Below are positions 2,626 to 51,600 of a DNA stretch of 64,000 nucleotides, piece after piece. Location: positions 137,054 to 201,053 of the forward strand of contig JAZRLA010000015.1 in assembly GCA_045646605.1 (NCBI GenBank), in the 5' to 3' direction. The DNA comes from Candidatus Enterousia sp. GTDB lineage: Bacteria; Pseudomonadota; Alphaproteobacteria; Rs-D84. Below the pieces are notes generated by a model, which had not been told where the DNA came from, did not search any database, and worked only from the letters and a program-made list of their open reading frames with translations. Made by a program: the position numbers and the translations under genes. Numbering within the stretch: the stretch's first letter is position 1; every line of letters starts with the position of its first letter.

Positions 2626-4287
2626 AAATTCATCGGGAATTTCATCGATGTCAATCGGCGTTGGGGCGTCAGTTGGCCCAGGAACCGGCGATACATCGGG
2701 TGCAAATTCAACCGTGCGACCCGCCATTTCATTAAGGTTATCGAACAAACTATATTCAGCCAAGAACGCAACCGTAACCGTATCTGTTCGACCGTGACGA
2801 TTTTTACCAATGATAATATCAGCCTTGCCCTTGGCCTTTTCAAGTCGGTTTTGCCATGAATCAACAGACTTTTCACTTGGTGTATTTGAAAGTCGCCGCG
2901 ATGGATCACGGTTTTGCAGATAATATTCTTCGCGATATGTGAACATAACAATGTCTGCATCTTGTTCAATAGAGCCCGATTCACGCAAATCGGCAAGTTG
3001 TGGCCGTTTATCATCGCGATTTTCCACACTGCGCGACAATTGTGAAAGTGCGATAACCGGAACACTAAATTCCTTGGCCATCATTTTAAGACCACGCGTG
3101 ATTTCGGATAATTCCTGAACACGATTATCACTGCGTTTACCCCCCGGCAAAGTTAGTAACTGCAAGTAATCAATAACGATAAGCGCAATTCCGTTATATT
3201 TCCGGGCAAGCCGTCGCACGCGTGTGCGAATCATCGGCAAAGACATCCCTGGGGTATCATCAATAAACAATGGAATTCGTCCGATTGCATCGGAAAATTG
3301 CGCCATTTTAAGGAAATCTTCATCAGTTAAAGAACCTTCACGCATCGCGGACGATGGAATTCGTGCCTGGGATGACAAAACACGTGCCGCCAATTCGGAT
3401 GCACCCATCTCTAAGCTGAAAAACGCAACGGCACCTTTATACTGTTCATTCGCGCGACCAGAAAAAATCGCATTTGCCGCATTAAACGCAATATTCATGG
3501 CAAGTGTGGTTTTACCCATACCCGGGCGTCCCGCGATGATAAGTAAATTTGATTTATGCAATCCACTTATTGCACGGTCCAAATCGGTAAGCCCAGTGGT
3601 CAGCCCAGAAAGTTTCCCATCGGCTTTGTACGCGATTTCTGCTTCGGCCAGTGCATCCTTTAACGCATTTGCAATTGGTACGACATCACGCGACGCATCC
3701 CCGGTCATTGCAAGATTGAATAACTTTTGTTCGGCGGATTCGATTTGTGATGATACCGGGTTATCAAGGTCTTCAACAAATGCCGCATCGGTAACGGATT
3801 GCCCAAAATCAATAAGTTCGCGCCGCACCGCATTTTCGTGAACAATTCGCCCATACTGTTCAACATTCACGACCGTTGCGCCGGCGCCAGCCAATTGAGT
3901 CAGGTATTCAACCCCACCAACCGATTCCAATGTTCCCTGTTGATCAAGGTAATTTTTTGCCGTGATTATATCAAAAGGAATTCCGGCGGCAAATTGGCGC
4001 AGGGCAAGTTTATATATTTCCTGGTGCGCGGGATGTGAAAAATCTTCGGGTCGCAGAAATTCGGAAATTTTTTCCAATGCGCGATTTTTCATCAAAACCG
4101 CGGCAAGGACGGCCTGTTCGGCCTCTAAATTAGTCGGTAAAGTTTTGGGAGTAAAGTCCATGCCAAACATAGTATACGAAAAAAATGTTTTTTCAACGCC
4201 TTTTTTATCGGGATATGCGGAACTTAAAATTCCAATAGTCGACAAAGATGGAACCGCGGCATGGCCGGCGGTTTTTCCCATAGACAA
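2620..4287 (-). CDS. dnaB: replicative DNA helicase DnaB
   Basis: DnaB N-terminal domain followed by RecA-like core with 'GRPGMGKTTLA' Walker A and 'IVIDYLQLL'. True start may be the internal 'MFGMDF'. Acidic C-terminal tail. Confidence 0.85.
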   Translation of the reverse strand: MSMGKTAGHAAVPSLSTIGILSSAYPDKKGVEKTFFSYTMFGMDFTPKTLPTNLEAEQAVLAAVLMKNRALEKISEFLRPEDFSHPAHQEIYKLALRQFAAGIPFDIITAKNYLDQQGTLESVGGVEYLTQLAGAGATVVNVEQYGRIVHENAVRRELIDFGQSVTDAAFVEDLDNPVSSQIESAEQKLFNLAMTGDASRDVVPIANALKDALAEAEIAYKADGKLSGLTTGLTDLDRAISGLHKSNLLIIAGRPGMGKTTLAMNIAFNAANAIFSGRANEQYKGAVAFFSLEMGASELAARVLSSQARIPSSAMREGSLTDEDFLKMAQFSDAIGRIPLFIDDTPGMSLPMIRTRVRRLARKYNGIALIVIDYLQLLTLPGGKRSDNRVQELSEITRGLKMMAKEFSVPVIALSQLSRSVENRDDKRPQLADLRESGSIEQDADIVMFTYREEYYLQNRDPSRRLSNTPSEKSVDSWQNRLEKAKGKADIIIGKNRHGRTDTVTVAFLAEYSLFDNLNEMAGRTVEFAPDVSPVPGPTDAPTPIDIDEIPDEFE

Positions 4288-19144: not shown

Positions 19145-19150
19145 AAAATT

Positions 19151-19179
19151 CAAACCGCCGTTCGGCGGTTTTAATTTTT
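19151..19179 (+). terminator. rho-independent terminator after tRNA-Ala
   Basis: Hairpin AACCGCC-GTTC-GGCGGTT followed by a T run. Confidence 0.6.
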
Positions 19180-19265
19180 GCCGCGATCAGACGGATTTTT
19201 ACAAACGCAGTGCAGTAAAAATAAATTGCGAACGCAATTTGTCGTCACCCCGGCGCAGGCCGAGG

Positions 19266-19281
19266 CCGATCAGCTCCACCA
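19266..19281 (+). repeat. 16-bp direct copy of the tRNA-Ala 3' end (att-like)
   Basis: CCGATCAGCTCCACCA is identical to tRNA positions 19129-19144. Confidence 0.7.
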
Positions 19282-19433
19282 TCCGTCTTCGCTTCGCTCC
19301 GTCGCGATTGGTACAATCGGGCGGGGCGATGTGATTTTAATCACGCGAAGCGGATGTCGCGACGGAGCATACAAAGTATGCGTAGACGGACAAAGTCGCG
19401 AAGTAGCGTAAGCGCAGACGGACGGACAATAAA

Positions 19434-19673
19434 ATGTATTATGTATATATTTTGCAAAGTATAGATTCCCCAGATAAATTTTATATCGGATATACCGAAG
19501 ATTTGAAACGTCGTATGAAACAACATAATTACGAACATTTCGGACATACAGAAAAATATCGTCCGTGGCGACTGAAAGATTATTTTGCTATTGATAATGA
19601 AAATAAAGCAAAAAAATTTGAACAATATCTAAAATCTCAATGTGGTCGAGAATTTATAAAAAAACATTTTTAA
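19434..19673 (+). CDS. small stand-alone GIY-YIG nuclease family protein
   Basis: 'YYVYILQS...KFYIGYTEDLKRR' matches the GIY-YIG motif. 79 aa. Confidence 0.7.
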   Translation: MYYVYILQSIDSPDKFYIGYTEDLKRRMKQHNYEHFGHTEKYRPWRLKDYFAIDNENKAKKFEQYLKSQCGREFIKKHF

Positions 19674-19693: not shown

Positions 19694-19936
19694 TTACAAC
19701 AACCCTTCGAAAAATCTTAAGATTTCGCGATTGTTAAAATCCAGCGCGCGCAGGATCCGTACCAAATCTATAATATCCAACCGACGTTCGCATGTTTCCG
19801 CACGCCCGACAAAGCAATGCGCAACCCCCAACTTTTTCGCCAAATCGCGTTGGGTTAAACCCTGTTGCATACGCAAAGATTTTAACGAATCTATCATCGC
19901 GCGATATTTTGGGTCAAAAATTGTTTTCCTGGTCAT
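19694..19936 (-). CDS. XRE-family HTH transcriptional regulator
   Basis: 'LRMQQGLTQRDLAKKLGVAHCFVGRAE' HTH. Confidence 0.6.
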   Translation of the reverse strand: MTRKTIFDPKYRAMIDSLKSLRMQQGLTQRDLAKKLGVAHCFVGRAETCERRLDIIDLVRILRALDFNNREILRFFEGLL

Positions 19937-33241: not shown

Positions 33242-34240
33242 TTATCTTAACCCAAGCGCAAGTTTAGCGCGGTTCAGGGTTTCTGATGCAACTACGCGGG
33301 CTTTTCCTGCGCCATCATCAAGAATCTTGTTCAACACTTCCGGATTCTTGAACCGCTGATATTTTGTTTGAATGTTTCCAATTAAACCGCAAACCGCATC
33401 CGCAACTTCGCGCTTGAAATCGCCGTACCCATGACCCGCAAAACGTTTTTCTATTGCTTCAATGCTTTCGCCGGTTGTCGCGGCCAGTATGCTTATCAAA
33501 TTTGAAAGGCCGGGTTTCGCACTTTCATCAAACCGTATCACAGATTCATTGTCCGTGACCGCCGACATTATCTTTTTGCGAACCAATTTCAAATCGTCCA
33601 TCAGAAAGATTGTTCCCGGGTTTGGACCGTCCGATTTATTCATCTTTTCCGTTGGATTTTGCAGGTTCAATATCTTGTTCCCCACGGGCGCGATATAAAC
33701 ATCGGGTTCATTAAATGTATCGCCATATCGCTTGTTAAACCGTTGTGCCAAATCGCGGGTTAATTCCACATGCTGTTGCTGGTCCAATCCAACCGGAACC
33801 ACATCTGTATTATACAGCAATATATCGGCGGACATCAACGGCGGATACACAAACAGCCCCGTATCAATTCCGTTTTTGCCCACATTTTGCGATTTCAATT
33901 TGAACTGGGTCATACGCGACAATTCGCCCATATGCGTTTGAAACGTCATTATAAAGCCCATAATGCCGTGTTCCAAAACATCGCTTTGCCGAAAGACAAT
34001 TGTTTGTTCTGGGTCAACACCGCACGCCAAATACATGGCGATACAGTCATTGACCGCGATCTGCAATTCCGCCGGGTCGCGGGGCGATGTTATCGCATGC
34101 AAGTCCGCCACAAAAATATAACTTTTGTATTGGGCCTGGCGCGTCACAAAATTTTTTATGGCGCCCAAATAGTTCCCAAGTGTCAGGTTTCCACTGGGCC
34201 GCACACCGGTTAACATAACCTTTTGTTCATTGTTTTTCAT
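33242..34240 (-). CDS. trpS: tryptophan--tRNA ligase
   Basis: Class I HIGH-like 'TGVRPSGNLTLGNYLG' and 'KMNKS' (KMSKS) motifs. Confidence 0.85.
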   Translation of the reverse strand: MKNNEQKVMLTGVRPSGNLTLGNYLGAIKNFVTRQAQYKSYIFVADLHAITSPRDPAELQIAVNDCIAMYLACGVDPEQTIVFRQSDVLEHGIMGFIMTFQTHMGELSRMTQFKLKSQNVGKNGIDTGLFVYPPLMSADILLYNTDVVPVGLDQQQHVELTRDLAQRFNKRYGDTFNEPDVYIAPVGNKILNLQNPTEKMNKSDGPNPGTIFLMDDLKLVRKKIMSAVTDNESVIRFDESAKPGLSNLISILAATTGESIEAIEKRFAGHGYGDFKREVADAVCGLIGNIQTKYQRFKNPEVLNKILDDGAGKARVVASETLNRAKLALGLR

Positions 34241-34765
34241 AATAAAAATCCTTTGTTTATAATTAAACTAAATTGAGTTGAAAAAACATAATAGGTATAG
34301 AAAGTACTGGCTGTGACTACAGCCACCAAACGAAAGAACAAAATGCAACTTGCGTGTTCATACCGTGAATTATAATGTATTTTATTTGAAAAGTCAATGC
34401 ATAGACATGATTAGCGCACCCAGAAGGGTTTGCTCGCACGACACTGAGTGTCGGCTGCGCGCAACCCGTGACGATTTCGCTGCACTCCGTTTGCAAAATC
34501 TACTTGGTTTCGACCCCTTCGTTGCTTCGCAACTCTGTCGGGTTCGCATCCCTGTTGTTCCAACAGTAAAAATAAAAACATCGCGCAAGGCGATGTTTTC
34601 ATTTTTATCCTGGCGCACCCATTCATTCCCCTTGATAAACAATAAATAAAATTAAAAAATTTACTTGCATAAATTTTTAAAATTTTACTAATTGTTCATC
34701 TGCGTATTGTGTGCTGCGCCGATACAGGGCTCGCACACATCCTTCTGGGTGCATTGTCCCAAAAA

Positions 34766-34792
34766 TTAAAAACCGACCATAAACGGTCGGTT
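34766..34792. terminator. terminator hairpin downstream of tRNA-Arg
   Basis: AAAACCGACC-ATAAAC-GGTCGGTTTT. Confidence 0.6.
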
Positions 34793-34801
34793 TTGAATTT
34801 C

Positions 34802-34878
34802 TGGCGCACCCAGAAGGATTCGAACCCTCAGTCTTCTGATCCGTAGTCAGACGCTTTATCCAGTTGAGCTATGGGTGC
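34802..34878 (-). tRNA. tRNA-Arg (ACG)
   Basis: Reverse complement folds as a cloverleaf. Anticodon loop CTACGGA. CCA encoded. Confidence 0.9.
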
Positions 34879-34927
34879 AACGCGTATTATTTTATACCAA
34901 AATATCCCGATTGCAAGAAAAAAGATT

Positions 34928-35854
34928 TCACATCTCCTCCAACCGCCGGATTCTTTCCTTAATCGGTGGGTGGGTCGCCATAATTTCACCGAAAAACGCG
35001 CGCGCCCGTGTTGGGTTTGCGATGCATATTGCCGCCATTGTCTTGCGACCATCAAGGTTTTTAACAACCGAATGTTCCGAAATTTTGCGCAGCGCCGCCG
35101 CGAGTGCCCGCGGATTCCGCGTTATATACGCGCCCGTCGCGTCCGCCGCATATTCACGCCGCCGCGAAATCGCCATGCGTAAAATCGGCGTGACAACGAC
35201 ATTAAAAATCGTAAACGCCAACCAGACCATCATTATCACCGCCGCACCATTGCTTTTATCGTTATCGCGCGGACGTGCATACATCATATTCCGCGCCAAC
35301 ATATCCGCAATAAAGACCGTAACGCCAATGCCGGTTATGATAAACATATCAAGACGTATATCGCGGTTGCCAATGTGTGCCATTTCGTGGGCGATGACAC
35401 CTTCCAATTCCGGTCGGTCCAATTTTTCAATAATCCCACGCGTCAGCGCAACCGTCGCATCACGTGGCGCGCGGCCCGTTGCGAATGCGTTAAGGCCGGC
35501 GTCTTCGATAATATAAACGCGTGGTGTGGGCAACCCGGCGGCGATTGCGACATTTTCCACTGATTTGTAAACATAGCGATAATCTGGGTCGGTGTCGTTT
35601 ATCTGCTTTGCGCCCGCCACGGAAAGCATCATCGAATCCCCAAACGCCCACGATATCAGCATCCAAATGGCGCACACAACAACCGTCGGCACCGCCACCA
35701 TCGTCGTCGTATTTATCGCATCAACCGGCGGTTGCACACACCAAACACACAGAAACACAATTGCGATAAAAATAATTGGAAACATCATCACCAACACCGC
35801 GGTCTTTATATTATTCGCGCGTATATGGTCATAAACAGTTTTAACTTTTTTCAT
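34928..35854 (-). CDS. htpX: M48 zinc protease HtpX
   Basis: 'HEMAHIGNRD' HExxH motif and TM helices. Confidence 0.8.
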   Translation of the reverse strand: MKKVKTVYDHIRANNIKTAVLVMMFPIIFIAIVFLCVWCVQPPVDAINTTTMVAVPTVVVCAIWMLISWAFGDSMMLSVAGAKQINDTDPDYRYVYKSVENVAIAAGLPTPRVYIIEDAGLNAFATGRAPRDATVALTRGIIEKLDRPELEGVIAHEMAHIGNRDIRLDMFIITGIGVTVFIADMLARNMMYARPRDNDKSNGAAVIMMVWLAFTIFNVVVTPILRMAISRRREYAADATGAYITRNPRALAAALRKISEHSVVKNLDGRKTMAAICIANPTRARAFFGEIMATHPPIKERIRRLEEM

Positions 35855-48698: not shown

Positions 48699-49034
48699 AA
48701 GTTTTTTATTAGAAATCCGGACGTTTGCGCCGGATTTTTTGTTTTGTGTCGAAAAATACCGATGCAACGAACCCCTTATAAATCTAACATTTTTTGCTTT
48801 TGGCACACTTGAAAAATAAAGGATGAAAACCTATGTTTAAGAAGTGTAAAGCAAACTGTCAAGCAAACTGATAAAAGAGCAGGTAAAAAGCGGCGGAAAT
48901 CGCGGCGGAACAAAGTGGAGACGGCAAGCAAATATCTATGGGGTAATGCGTTTTATTAGACTATCGAATCGCCGTTTCAAGACGGTAAAAAGGGAAAACG
49001 AATTGTTTTACGCCCGCAATATCGTTCAAAATTC

Positions 49035-49562
49035 TTAATCTGGGTGATAAAGGTAAAATTTATCTTGTTGATGCGTGGTTTTACTCCATAATTCCCCAGA
49101 TTCCTTTTCTGACATATTTGAAAAATCGATTCTTTCTTTAAGGACAAATACTCTGATATTGCCATTTTTTATTTCTTGCATAATGTCAATTTCAATAATT
49201 CTTTTAATTTTCTTGTCTGCCAAGCAATAATAATCCGTACCAGTATCATGCATGAACCCGTCGGAATCCAATTCATATACATACGCTTTTTCTGGAATAT
49301 TTGGTTTGAGTCTTTCGACATATAACGCAGAACTGCCCACGGGGGATTTCCAACCACTGCCTATCAATCTCATGACGGCGTAAAGGCGCGCGTGTGCAAA
49401 ATCAGACGTTGCGAACACAGCGGTTATTTCCGTTTTCATATGATCTATATAGCCCGGTGACATCTGAATAAATCCGGTGTCTATTTTCACGCGAGAACCA
49501 TGATAAAGGATTTCTGGTAACTTATCATTCATGCGAATGAGTGTACCAAAAAATAATGACAA
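49035..49562 (-). CDS. hypothetical protein (island cargo)
   Basis: 175 aa. 'ILYHGSRV' N-terminal motif. No family assigned. Confidence 0.35.
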   Translation of the reverse strand: MSLFFGTLIRMNDKLPEILYHGSRVKIDTGFIQMSPGYIDHMKTEITAVFATSDFAHARLYAVMRLIGSGWKSPVGSSALYVERLKPNIPEKAYVYELDSDGFMHDTGTDYYCLADKKIKRIIEIDIMQEIKNGNIRVFVLKERIDFSNMSEKESGELWSKTTHQQDKFYLYHPD

Positions 49563-49596
49563 TTCAAGGAATTTATAGGGGCATAAATCTGGTTTT

Positions 49597-50190
49597 TTGT
49601 TGACAAATTCGTTTAATATAATATACTTTGGGCGACAAAAAGCAGAAAAAGGTAAAAATGTGACAAATAACGATAATCATGAAAAACAGGAAATACAATC
49701 CGATGACCCGATAATCCAAAAATGCTTGGATATTATTCGTAATGAAAAGACCATAGTCATAAAACCTTTTCAAAAACACGGCGACTTTTATGTAGCGTAT
49801 ATAAAAAATGGGGAACTTTTCAGCTTTGTTCCAGAATACAGCATATTGGGCAAAACGTGGAAACATACCATTAGAATAAATAATGATAAGCAACCAACCG
49901 TTTTTTATGGAAAGCGATCGTCAGATTTAATAGAATTGCATAAATTATGTGACGAAAAATATTTTAAAAGAAAAGAAGCCCAAAAAGAATGGAGGCGAAA
50001 ATATTATCCAATAATTTTAGCTTCTGCGCTTGGTGTCGGTATGCTCGTTTTTGGTTGGTCCAGAATTCATAAAAAAGATAATGTTGATAAACAGGTTGAA
50101 TCGTATGAAAAAACTTTACCGGGGTATTTGGAACAAAAACAGACGGTCGAACACTATCGCGACAGTTTAATGCACGCCAAAAGACGGTAA
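49597..50190 (+). CDS. hypothetical protein with C-terminal TM helix (island cargo)
   Basis: ORF with one predicted TM helix ('YPIILASALGVGMLVFGW'). Confidence 0.35.
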   Translation: MLTNSFNIIYFGRQKAEKGKNVTNNDNHEKQEIQSDDPIIQKCLDIIRNEKTIVIKPFQKHGDFYVAYIKNGELFSFVPEYSILGKTWKHTIRINNDKQPTVFYGKRSSDLIELHKLCDEKYFKRKEAQKEWRRKYYPIILASALGVGMLVFGWSRIHKKDNVDKQVESYEKTLPGYLEQKQTVEHYRDSLMHAKRR

Positions 50191-50209
50191 AGAAAGAAAA
50201 GCAATTTTT

Positions 50210-50371
50210 TTGCGACCATTTTCGGCACAATCAAAGAAATTAAAACTATCACGAAATACTAAAAAGATTAAAAACTGGTTAGATACAGGATTCACAAAAT
50301 ACCGCATTGCAAAAATGATGTCTGTATCACCATCAACTGTTTCGAACTTTATTCAACGGATGGGGGGGTGA
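50210..50371 (+). pseudogene. HTH-domain fragment, possibly a transposase or excisionase N-terminal remnant
   Basis: No ATG start (TTG at 50210). Encodes 'TGFTKYRIAKMMSVSPSTVSNFIQR', a typical IS/recombinase HTH. Ends in a G7 homopolymer. Confidence 0.3.
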
Positions 50372-50393
50372 TGCACCATATGGCGTTTTCGAT

Positions 50394-51419
50394 TTAATTT
50401 CTGCGGTTCAAGACACTGATAACAACTTGCTTTACCGTTTCCATCTCGGCGGGTTTGCTTTCTGCGATAAGCAAAGTCAATGCGAATAAGGTTGCGCCAT
50501 CAATCAGTGTTTGACCGTTTTCGTCATACAACATTTTGTTCCGGTCCAAGAAATACAGGAAACAACTGGCCCCTATGCGTTTGTTCCCGTCAACAAAACT
50601 GTGGTTTTTGACAATCAGGTAAAGTAATGTCGCGGCTTTTTCTTCCAACGATGGATAGAATTCTTTGCCGTCAAAGGTTTGATAAATCTGTCCCACAGAA
50701 CTGTAAAAACCTTGGTCTTTTTGCTTTGCGAAAACATCACTGGCAAAACTGCCCTTCATTTGGTCAACCACAGACAAAAATTCTTCAGCACCAATCACAA
50801 CCGCGTCGTTTTTGGTTCTGCCAGTTCGGTCCAGTGTTTTATGGTCAAAGTCGTCCAACAAATTTAACCCGCGCACAAAATCATTCAAAACGCGCGAAAT
50901 CTCTTGGACTTGGTCCATATTATCAGTTTGATTTTCAATGCTGCGCGTCATTAAATCCAAAGTTTTTTGCAAAGTCAGCAACTTTGATTTTTGTTCAGCG
51001 ATGACGCGTTGGTTTATAACATAACCCTGGACCAGGTAATCTTTCAGCGTTTTCGTTGCCCAGATACGGAATTGAGTCGCAGTTTTTGATTTTACCCGAT
51101 ATCCAACCGACAAAATCATGTCCAGGTTATAGAATTTTATATGACGGGTTATCTTGCGCTTGCCTTCTTGTTGAACTTGTGCAATTTTGGCACAAGTTGA
51201 ATTTTCTGCCAATTCTCCGTCTTTAATAATGTTTCGTATGTGCTTTACTATCGCCGTTCTGTCTGTATTAAACAATGCAGACATCTGGTCTTGGGTCAAC
51301 CAGACGGTATCGTCCTGAATCTTGACATCAATCCGTGTTTGACCATTTTCAGCGGTATAAATCGCAATTTGATTATTTATATCGTTCATATCAAATCCTT
51401 TGGTGGGATTATAACCCAA
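50394..51419 (-). CDS. RhuM-family N-terminal domain fused to a Fic/Doc-family domain
   Basis: N-terminus 'IAIYTAENGQTRIDVKIQDDTVWLTQDQMSALF' is RhuM-like. C-terminus 'HSFVDGNKRIGAS' matches the Doc/Fic motif HxFx(D)GNKR. Confidence 0.7.
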   Translation of the reverse strand: MGYNPTKGFDMNDINNQIAIYTAENGQTRIDVKIQDDTVWLTQDQMSALFNTDRTAIVKHIRNIIKDGELAENSTCAKIAQVQQEGKRKITRHIKFYNLDMILSVGYRVKSKTATQFRIWATKTLKDYLVQGYVINQRVIAEQKSKLLTLQKTLDLMTRSIENQTDNMDQVQEISRVLNDFVRGLNLLDDFDHKTLDRTGRTKNDAVVIGAEEFLSVVDQMKGSFASDVFAKQKDQGFYSSVGQIYQTFDGKEFYPSLEEKAATLLYLIVKNHSFVDGNKRIGASCFLYFLDRNKMLYDENGQTLIDGATLFALTLLIAESKPAEMETVKQVVISVLNRRN

Positions 51420-51600
51420 AACACCGAGTTGTGAAATAAAAAAATCGTGTACTTTTGCCGAAAATCGTGTTATTTTATAAAAGTGCCAAGCAAAGTGTCA
51501 GGCAAACTGATAAAAAACAGGTAAAAAGCGGCAAAAAGGGTTGAAAAAACGGCTAAAAAAAGTCAAATGCGTTCCCCTTTGCTCGCACCAGAAATTTTAA

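Follow-up and report, generated by a model that had tools for sequence, protein, structure and literature searches.

Positions 34411–34801 of the 64,000-nt stretch of Candidatus Enterousia DNA analysed here (the window; all coordinates are window positions) probably hold a tandem pair of non-coding modules linked to the tRNA-Arg(ACG) gene and resembling the RtT repeats of Escherichia coli (Rfam RF00391; rttR, tpr; the 178-bp repeats of the tyrT operon), with a function as RNA and a mode of spread that we infer. The region is marked by copies of the 3' end of the preceding tRNA. Comparison among loci identifies these copies as the arms of structured modules that belong to a tRNA-linked family, the arms being evidently templated on the local tRNA.

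A preliminary description of the window had reported two direct and one inverted partial copy of the tRNA-Arg(ACG) end, and all three were recovered, at 12/12, 16/17 and 14/14 matching positions, within 390 bp downstream of the gene. The template for all copies is the last ~22 nt of the tRNA, here called A; A' denotes an antisense copy. The first direct copy (34610–34621, CTGGCGCACCCA) consists of the last 11 nt of the tRNA and one flanking base and matches at 12/12 in the repeat search. The second, A2, contains an exact 14-nt core at 34414–34427 and reads GCTA where the tRNA has GCCA. The direct repeats are spaced by 191 and 199 bp. Searches of the 64-kb window with a 14-mer (≤2 mismatches) and a 12-mer (≤1 mismatch) returned no further sites, and for each pattern separately shuffled sequences gave a mean of 0.23 matches and reached the observed count in 1 of 100 shuffles. 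The copies are real and far beyond chance, and the shuffles rule out a chance origin for the copies of the tRNA-Ala and tRNA-Gly ends as well. The strong hairpins and the T-arm-like GGGTTCGCATCCC of the preliminary description are likewise present, the former as terminator-like stem-loops at 34769–34794 and 34575–34599 in a terminator scan and the latter at 34540–34552. The features of the array, from the tRNA outwards, are as follows (L-numbers label comparison loci from related genomes and metagenomes):

34802–34878, minus strand: tRNA-Arg(ACG) (ARAGORN; Rfam tRNA model, 62.4 bits).
34759–34804, no strand: T1, bidirectional terminator-like palindrome directly after the CCA, stem-loop 34769–34794 (inverted repeat with 20-nt arms, 90% complementary; terminator scan).
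34739–34752, minus strand: A'1, 5' arm of module 1, GCACCCAGAAGGAT in tRNA orientation and given as ATCCTTCTGGGTGC for 34739–34752 (14/14 complementary to 34806–34819).
34622–34738, minus strand: body of module 1 (unit C), a GC hairpin (34709–34714 with 34733–34738) and an AT-rich tract (conserved in L004 and L002).
34610–34621, minus strand: A1, sense copy, 3' arm of module 1, TGGGTGCGCCA plus G (12/12 against 34801–34812; unique in the window).
34567–34607, no strand: T2, second terminator-like palindrome, placed after A1 as T1 is after the tRNA, stem-loop 34575–34599 (inverted repeat with 18-nt arms, 94% complementary; terminator scan).
34540–34554, minus strand: A'2, decayed antisense T-arm copy, CAGGGATGCGAACCC in tRNA orientation, containing the T-arm-like GGGTTCGCATCCC (aligned with fuller antisense copies in L091 and L082).
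34506–34539, minus strand: sense T-arm 5' half GGGGTCGAAACC (34506–34517), which pairs with A'2, and small hairpin GTTGCGAAGCAAC (34521–34533) (fold; conserved in L002, L004, L082, L091 and L096).
34456–34520, minus strand: conserved hairpin with invariant loop CAAACGGAGTGCAG (34480–34493) (covariance model R1, 53.6 bits, E = 2e-9; stem covariation).
34431–34455, minus strand: GC-rich hairpin (34439–34453) and linker before A2 (fold; homologous hairpin in L002, L004 and L091).
34414–34430, minus strand: A2, sense copy from the T-loop, AACCCTTCTGGGTGCGC, 3' arm of module 2 and outer boundary of the array (16/17 against 34804–34820).
34369–34397, minus strand: trpS promoter, TTGACT, 17-nt spacer, TATAAT, the outer limit of the array and not part of it (11/12 consensus match).

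Read in the direction of the tRNA, a module runs from a terminator hairpin through A', which is antisense to the T-arm and the 3' strand of the acceptor, and a structured body to A, the sense copy from the T-loop towards the CCA. The order along the array is thus tRNA, T1, A'1, the GC hairpin and AT-rich tract of unit C, A1, T2, A'2, the small hairpin, GGGGTCGAAACC, the hairpin with loop CAAACGGAGTGCAG, the GC hairpin, A2 and the trpS promoter. Between the copies, the list of open reading frames (ORFs) of the region contains only overlapping chance ORFs and no gene remnants. The composite fold of the tRNA-sense strand has a free energy of −137.9 kcal/mol (z = −8.0 against shuffles), and that of the antisense strand −117.7 kcal/mol (z = −6.2). 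In the minimum-energy fold A'1 pairs with A2 (34414–34430), and the A'/A helix of the Arg(ACG) module comprises 13 bp followed by a GCCA tail.

These properties bear directly on the leading proposal of the preliminary description, repeated integration and decay at tRNA-Arg, in which the copies are attL/attR-type scars of integrase-mediated islands whose interiors were deleted. The 3' ends of tRNA genes are classical integration sites, the DNA behind tRNA-Arg varies among relatives (in L091, toxin-antitoxin and glycosyltransferase genes take the place of trpS), other tRNAs precede trpS in other species, and a genuine 2.9-kb island with 17-nt repeats stands at tRNA-Gly in the same window. However, the intervening DNA at tRNA-Arg holds no gene fragments, is strongly structured (z = −8), shows compensatory substitutions in its hairpins and is conserved as much as coding DNA or more; an antisense copy of the target is foreign to lambda-type att arms; and the tRNA-Gly island lacks the conserved hairpin. 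We therefore regard island scars as a very unlikely explanation of the tRNA-Arg locus, and the integration-and-decay proposal is not supported there.

Recurrence of the arrangement in relatives, a check suggested in the same description, was confirmed: the units are found there in other numbers and orders. T1 is 96% identical in L001 and L004, in both of which A'1 keeps its position, +49 to +50 from the end of the tRNA. An additional terminal piece is present in L004; in L002 a T2-type unit comes first behind the tRNA, and in L002 and L096 alike a T2-type terminator adjoins the tRNA directly. Fuller antisense arms (GCACC-AGAAGGAACGAACCC, 20/22) occur in L082, L091 and L096, and module numbers differ among the window, L002 and L004. 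L001 was considered as an empty tRNA-Arg site and rejected; it is a deletion derivative, because T1 and A', next to a decayed A, are all that is left of its array. Unit C is 98.6% identical in L004 and 97.6% in L002, compared to 86–90% for the flanking coding DNA. A second copy of unit C, 95.7% identical over 92 nt, lies away from tRNA ends in L091 (2983–3074, within 2970–3075), immediately before a promoter-like TTGACA/TATATAT and an ORF of 155 aa. The high conservation and the second locus suggest constraint or recent spread, and unit C may be an independent promoter-proximal module.

The arrangement is not confined to tRNA-Arg. A 17-base motif, TTTTNCAAACGNAGTGCAG, has exactly two sites in the 64 kb, one behind tRNA-Arg and one behind tRNA-Ala(GGC), and in each case 66 nt separate the end of the motif from that of the copy of its own tRNA's 3' end. 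The exact 16-nt copy of the tRNA-Ala end noted in the preliminary description (19266–19281) turns out to be the sense arm of this second module:

19145–19281, plus strand: short-type module behind tRNA-Ala(GGC), with a terminator, a weak A', the conserved hairpin at 19175–19239, two more hairpins and the 16-nt sense copy at 19266–19281 (motif spacing; R1, 46.1 bits).

An orthologue of the tRNA-Ala module is present in L123, and a body ~92% identical to it (counted from the sequences) follows tRNA-Leu in L102 and L135, with compensatory changes between the Ala and Leu bodies in two hairpins. In public metagenomes, a 20-base version of the motif identified 75 loci that fall into two classes. Class A comprises Enterousia-like contigs; at those with a detected neighbouring tRNA, this gene precedes the motif and shares its orientation, and its 3' end recurs after the motif. 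The tRNAs concerned are Arg-ACG, Arg-TCT, Leu-CAA, Lys-TTT, Pro-CGG and Ala-GGC. Two modules of greater divergence, behind Ser-TGA (L018) and Ser-GGA (L024), come from loci around trpS, so that modules stand behind at least 8–9 tRNA species in total. A sense copy of 16–21 nt with at least 94% identity is present in 16 of the 17 class A loci surveyed. The antisense copy in these 17 loci lies at +36 to +50 after the tRNA and is clearly specific to the cognate tRNA in the Arg, Ser-TGA, Lys and some Leu loci; the best antisense matches at Ala, Pro and Ser-GGA are either short or fail to exceed non-cognate controls. In L128 the CCGATC of tRNA-Leu is mirrored by GATCGG in A', whereas the other Leu loci have CCGACC and GTCGG, indicating at sequence level that A' tracks differences in the tRNA between species. 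The notion of a tRNA-end-derived repeat family, also raised in the preliminary description, is thus borne out in the form of homologous, structured, RtT-like modules behind many tRNAs whose terminal arms are the copies.

This distribution also weighs on a more local explanation, in which tandem duplication or palindrome extension around the terminator, without family behaviour, or chance produced the array. Unequal crossing-over between A repeats does change copy number (in the window, L002 and L004, and in E. coli, with 0 to 10 RtT places), and A, T1 and A' form one long quasi-palindrome centred on the terminator loop. But chance is excluded, and homologous bodies with different arms at different tRNAs contradict an origin confined to one locus, leaving this account extremely improbable.

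Some members of the family show additional features. L089 (Arg-TCT) and L113 (Lys) have a duplication of ~49 nt that takes in the terminator. In two species (L122, 95–140, and L128), further hairpins of ~40–45 nt are nested as insertions within the final hairpin of the tRNA-Leu modules, which suggests a further layer of small insertions inside modules. All that precedes a module in L092 (830–1100) and L069 is ~10 nt resembling a tRNA 3' end (ATTCCCACCA) and a terminator, and ARAGORN finds no intact tRNA; this module has outlived or lost its tRNA. Viral contigs were considered as hosts and rejected: six motif matches without tRNAs were found on them, of which only L064 was inspected and resembles coding sequence, and the viral matches are probably due to chance. 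Phage and plasmid collections gave no module match.

The best-defined element of the body is the conserved hairpin. Its loop in module 2, CAAACGNAGTGCAG, is invariant while the stems covary: among 34 non-identical hairpins, 85.9% of the cells of the apical stem are paired, compared to 70.8% in shuffles, and 0 of 500 shuffles reach the observed share. Changes on both sides affect 52 cells, and one position shows GC, UA, AU, UG and GU. On the tRNA-sense strand G.T pairs outnumber A.C pairs by 17:7, a count from related and therefore not independent sequences, which gives modest support to the tRNA-sense strand as the one that folds. The covariance model R1 returned only the four already known tRNA-adjacent hairpins from 364 kb of Enterousia-like DNA, the Ser-type modules being too diverged for it. 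No Rfam family matches the conserved hairpin or the environmental repeats described below. In the window region Rfam matched only the tRNA, at the gathering threshold or at E ≤ 10, and a literature search found the loop sequence in no paper.

The second class of metagenomic loci, class B, carries the same hairpin with no tRNA. These are ~50 environmental contigs from lake-sediment, peat and fen metagenomes (e.g., L093, L065, L073, L111 and L138) with a ~150-nt repeat that has the loop CAAACGNAGTGCAG (also written CAAACGNAGUGCAG) and neither a tRNA nor a recurrent neighbouring gene. The repeats share the motif GAGCGAAGCGAA with the tRNA-linked modules, occur as three tandem copies in L073 and fold strongly (z = −4.4 to −5.4).

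A clean pair of filled and empty sites at tRNA-Ser(GGA) defines the unit that is gained or lost. In L039 and L006 the tRNA is followed directly by GTATTCTG..., which in L039 runs on as GTATTCTGGGA...; at the same point L024 has 156 extra non-coding nucleotides, comprising a terminator, A' and a body, then a second 19-nt copy, AATCCCTTCGTCTCCGCCA, which extends from the T-loop as far as the CCA, before the shared flank resumes. The terminator and antisense arm are part of the inserted unit, because the insertion in L024 carries both and L039 and L006 have neither. A comparison of L018 with L007, L010 and L031 was rejected as a clean filled/empty pair, as the downstream flanks differ.

Such a unit could be a miniature, non-autonomous mobile element, in which A–T–A' or A'–body–A folds as a single strand into an attachment site resembling the double-stranded T-arm and acceptor end of the target tRNA gene, and the hairpin is the recognition or nick site of a tyrosine recombinase or HUH nuclease supplied in trans; strand exchange in the T-loop would regenerate the tRNA and duplicate its 3' end. 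Several observations speak for it, including the clean 156-nt insertion in L024 with its 19-nt duplication and element-borne terminator, the homologous bodies behind many tRNA species with arms matched to the target, and the tandem arrays. The T-loop is invariably where the duplication starts and where A/A' mismatches concentrate, as in the unpaired overlap of folded att sites; an invariant loop on covarying stems is typical of sites read single-stranded. The same hairpin occurs in high-copy, tRNA-free repeats on unrelated environmental contigs with no linked gene, and unit C is better conserved than the neighbouring genes and known from a second locus. Yet no recombinase or HUH gene was found adjoining any copy, the rest of the window being only partly annotated, and phage and plasmid collections hold no match. 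An element of 150–200 nt would need a new arm pair for each tRNA with no known route for switching targets, the RtT units of E. coli are confined to one locus, and deletion between repeats explains the presence/absence polymorphism equally. On balance we consider mobility of this kind possible but doubtful; it would be compatible with membership in an RtT-like family.

A further comparison is with known integrative systems. Like the att duplications of tRNA islands and cis-mobilizable elements (CIMEs), the modules are bounded by direct tRNA 3'-end repeats that begin in the T-loop, with the proximal copy restoring the tRNA, bring their own terminator and accrete in tandem at one tRNA. They differ in being only 110–300 bp long without an integrase or other gene, and in containing an antisense copy of the target and covarying hairpins; no recombinase gene or remnant lies between the repeats, where there is no credible ORF and where the L024 insertion is non-coding. 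With CTX-phi attP(+), integron attC sites and HUH elements (the palindrome-associated transposable elements (PATEs) of IS200/IS605, and the repetitive extragenic palindromes (REP) and bacterial interspersed mosaic elements (BIME)), they share an imperfect inverted repeat that reproduces a duplex target, mismatches at the presumed crossover, a conserved loop on variable stems, and a small, gene-less and repetitive nature. Unlike these, the modules target many tRNA ends rather than one site, and no candidate enzyme was found beside the copies. The protein cluster that recurs in module-bearing loci was considered as a candidate enzyme and rejected, since it consists of glycosyltransferases. A miniature inverted-repeat transposable element (MITE) derived from a DDE transposon was also rejected: the arms change with the local tRNA and the duplication varies from 16 to ~49 nt, so that neither terminal inverted repeats nor duplication length are fixed.

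The closest architectural counterpart is RtT. The tyrT repeats and rtT RNA of E. coli have been known since about 1980. The repeats behind tyrV in E. coli K-12 consist of the tRNA with its CCA, a spacer of ~57 nt, GGGGAAGGATGAGAAGCTTCGA, CC, AAGGTTCGA, a 65-nt insert and AATCCTTCCCCCACCACCA. Here GGGGAAGGATGAGAAGCTTCGA is a 22-nt antisense arm, 86% complementary to the 3' part of tRNA-Tyr with a mismatch bubble at the T-loop, the T-arm is split (AAGGTTCGA ... AATCC), and the sense arm measures 19 nt. The Rfam RtT model scores the E. coli units at 133–137 bits, and the helix that closes it corresponds exactly to the A'/A pairing and leaves the final 9 nt unpaired. As in E. coli, the Enterousia modules lie directly behind the tRNA, in its orientation and in tandem. 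At the 3' boundary of a unit stands a copy of the tRNA 3' end with its CCA (16–21 nt in Enterousia and 19 nt in E. coli; A1 12/12 and A2 16/17 in the window), and at the 5' boundary an antisense copy that pairs with it (A'1, 14/14, pairing with A2 in the fold). The 5' half of a sense T-arm (GGTTCGA) follows the antisense arm, so that the sense arm resembles a T-arm split in the loop. Copy number is polymorphic in both; of 5426 complete E. coli genomes, 688 lack RtT and others have it in up to 10 places. In a search with 175 nt, the Ser(TGA) module of L018 was the top and full-length match to RtT, at a sub-threshold score of 19.9 bits (E = 0.08). Colinear blocks common to RtT and the Arg-TCT and Pro modules are GAYGAGAACCTTCGAC / GA(T/C)GAGAACCTTCGAC, TTGCC(C)CGCAGGCA and GAGNGA(A/G)T next to A. 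The differences are a terminator hairpin on the 5' side of the Enterousia modules and none in the E. coli units, an extra hairpin with the CAAACGNAGTGCAG loop in most Enterousia modules, at least 8 tRNA species compared to only tRNA-Tyr, and a host that is a reduced-genome alphaproteobacterium. The family thus shares its plan and some of its sequence with RtT and, judged by these resemblances, appears to be a remote variant of it.

By analogy with E. coli, where the tyrT transcript reportedly yields rtT RNA by processing (Bosl and Kersten 1991, cited by PMC3318445 and bioRxiv 10.1101/2024.07.17.603846), the Enterousia modules would be transcribed in the tRNA sense by read-through. Pairing of A' with A would give a module, or the array as a whole, a closed, multibranched fold ending in an NCCA-type 3' tail, and this tRNA-like end might then be trimmed by tRNA-processing enzymes. 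The array could grow and shrink by recombination between the repeated A segments, and new tRNA loci could be colonised by a target-templated process, centred on the T-loop, that copies both strands of the 3' end. The mode of action of rtT RNA itself was called unknown as late as 2024 (bioRxiv 10.1101/2024.07.17.603846).

Several observations weigh against an RtT-like family of RNA-encoding modules. The strong terminator between the tRNA and each module speaks against efficient co-transcription, and a promoter scan of the region found no internal promoter on the tRNA-sense strand. A clean GCCA tail is present only for Arg(ACG); across members the 3' tail left by the helix ranges from 4 to 8 nt, and a mimic of the tRNA acceptor end fails for some members because the tail is 8 nt in Lys and in E. 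coli Tyr. The tRNA-Ala module folds no better than shuffles (z = −0.6). The best Enterousia module, at 19.9 bits, stays below the RtT gathering threshold of 45 bits, the window's own modules have no RtT match in 34200–34950 even at E ≤ 10, and the Lys module of L113 has none. Because the window and Lys modules lack a match, homology to RtT rests on the one sub-threshold match, the short common blocks and the shared architecture. At tRNA-Ser(GGA), an exact deletion between the two 19-nt repeats could explain the empty state equally well, so that the direction of change is not proven.

If the RtT-like reading holds, RtT would widen from a single-locus oddity to a family with testable rules: arms copied from the target, a boundary in the T-loop and an invariant body loop. 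Further traits of the family would be presence/absence polymorphism between species and a hairpin common to unrelated environmental repeats. A broader and more speculative proposal, which we consider unlikely, is that RtT, the Enterousia modules and the tRNA-free environmental repeats form one superfamily of small structured elements that install themselves behind tRNAs by templated copying of both strands, with the CAAACGNAGTGCAG loop as the handle for a trans-acting enzyme shared across phyla. Folded single-strand recombination, copy-choice or T-loop-centred reverse transcription could serve as example routes. Such a superfamily would amount to a target-programmable insertion system without a gene of its own.

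The preliminary description had grouped the tRNA-Arg locus with copies at tRNA-Ala and tRNA-Gly. The tRNA-Ala locus belongs with it, in the same module family, but the tRNA-Gly locus does not. Its exact 17-nt copy at 51574–51590, 2.9 kb downstream, closes an ordinary island at tRNA-Gly(GCC) (48699–51590, 2.9 kb, low GC) that has an exact 17-nt copy of the tRNA 3' end at each border and in which the conserved hairpin was not found. Its gene content includes a RhuM/Fic-domain gene (50394–51419, minus strand), with DUF7424 as the only other match, and none of the 4–5 island ORFs tested matches an integrase. Direct repeats of ~40 nt lie near both island ends (around 48843–48895 and 51487–51535). 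The decayed-island reading fits this tRNA-Gly island and not the tRNA-Arg locus. For annotation, a tRNA-end fragment near a tRNA gene need not be an island scar, and uncritical use of such fragments as att-site markers is unwise.

Directly after the tRNA-Ala module is a gene for a 79-aa stand-alone GIY-YIG nuclease domain (19434–19673, plus strand), beside an 80-aa XRE-type helix-turn-helix gene (19694–19936, minus strand), and a 12-nt perfect inverted repeat (19296–19307 / 19357–19368) precedes both. The GIY-YIG gene was considered as a module-linked enzyme and rejected, as no copy is present in any other fetched locus.

The tRNA-Arg array is flanked by genes for a class I tryptophanyl-tRNA synthetase (TrpRS, trpS; 33242–34240, minus strand) and an M48 peptidase (34928–35854, minus strand). 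The closest genomes are metagenome-assembled genomes from rumen and gut labelled Candidatus Enterousia or Alphaproteobacteria, whose TrpRS is 81–96% identical. Among related species (L001–L039) the tRNA preceding trpS varies, being Arg-ACG, Ser-TGA, Ser-GGA, Ser-CGA, Ser-GCT, Lys-TTT or none, and the trpS promoter is kept in all relatives, whichever tRNA precedes. Because the tRNA before trpS differs while the promoter and leader are constant, the tRNA 3' flank appears to be a recurrent rearrangement breakpoint in this lineage. The copies lie upstream of the trpS promoter and are therefore not in the trpS transcript. A T-box leader or other regulation of trpS was rejected as an explanation of the copies, given no T-box match, their position upstream of the promoter and a promoter and leader that are constant across the preceding tRNAs. 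The trpS leader itself contains a highly conserved ORF of 14 codons (34317–34361, minus strand; MNTQVAFCSFVWWL*) with two adjacent Trp codons, which starts ~7 nt past the −10 box and overlaps a terminator-like hairpin at 34308–34325; from its sequence, it looks like a Trp-sensing attenuator of the Trp-tRNA synthetase gene.

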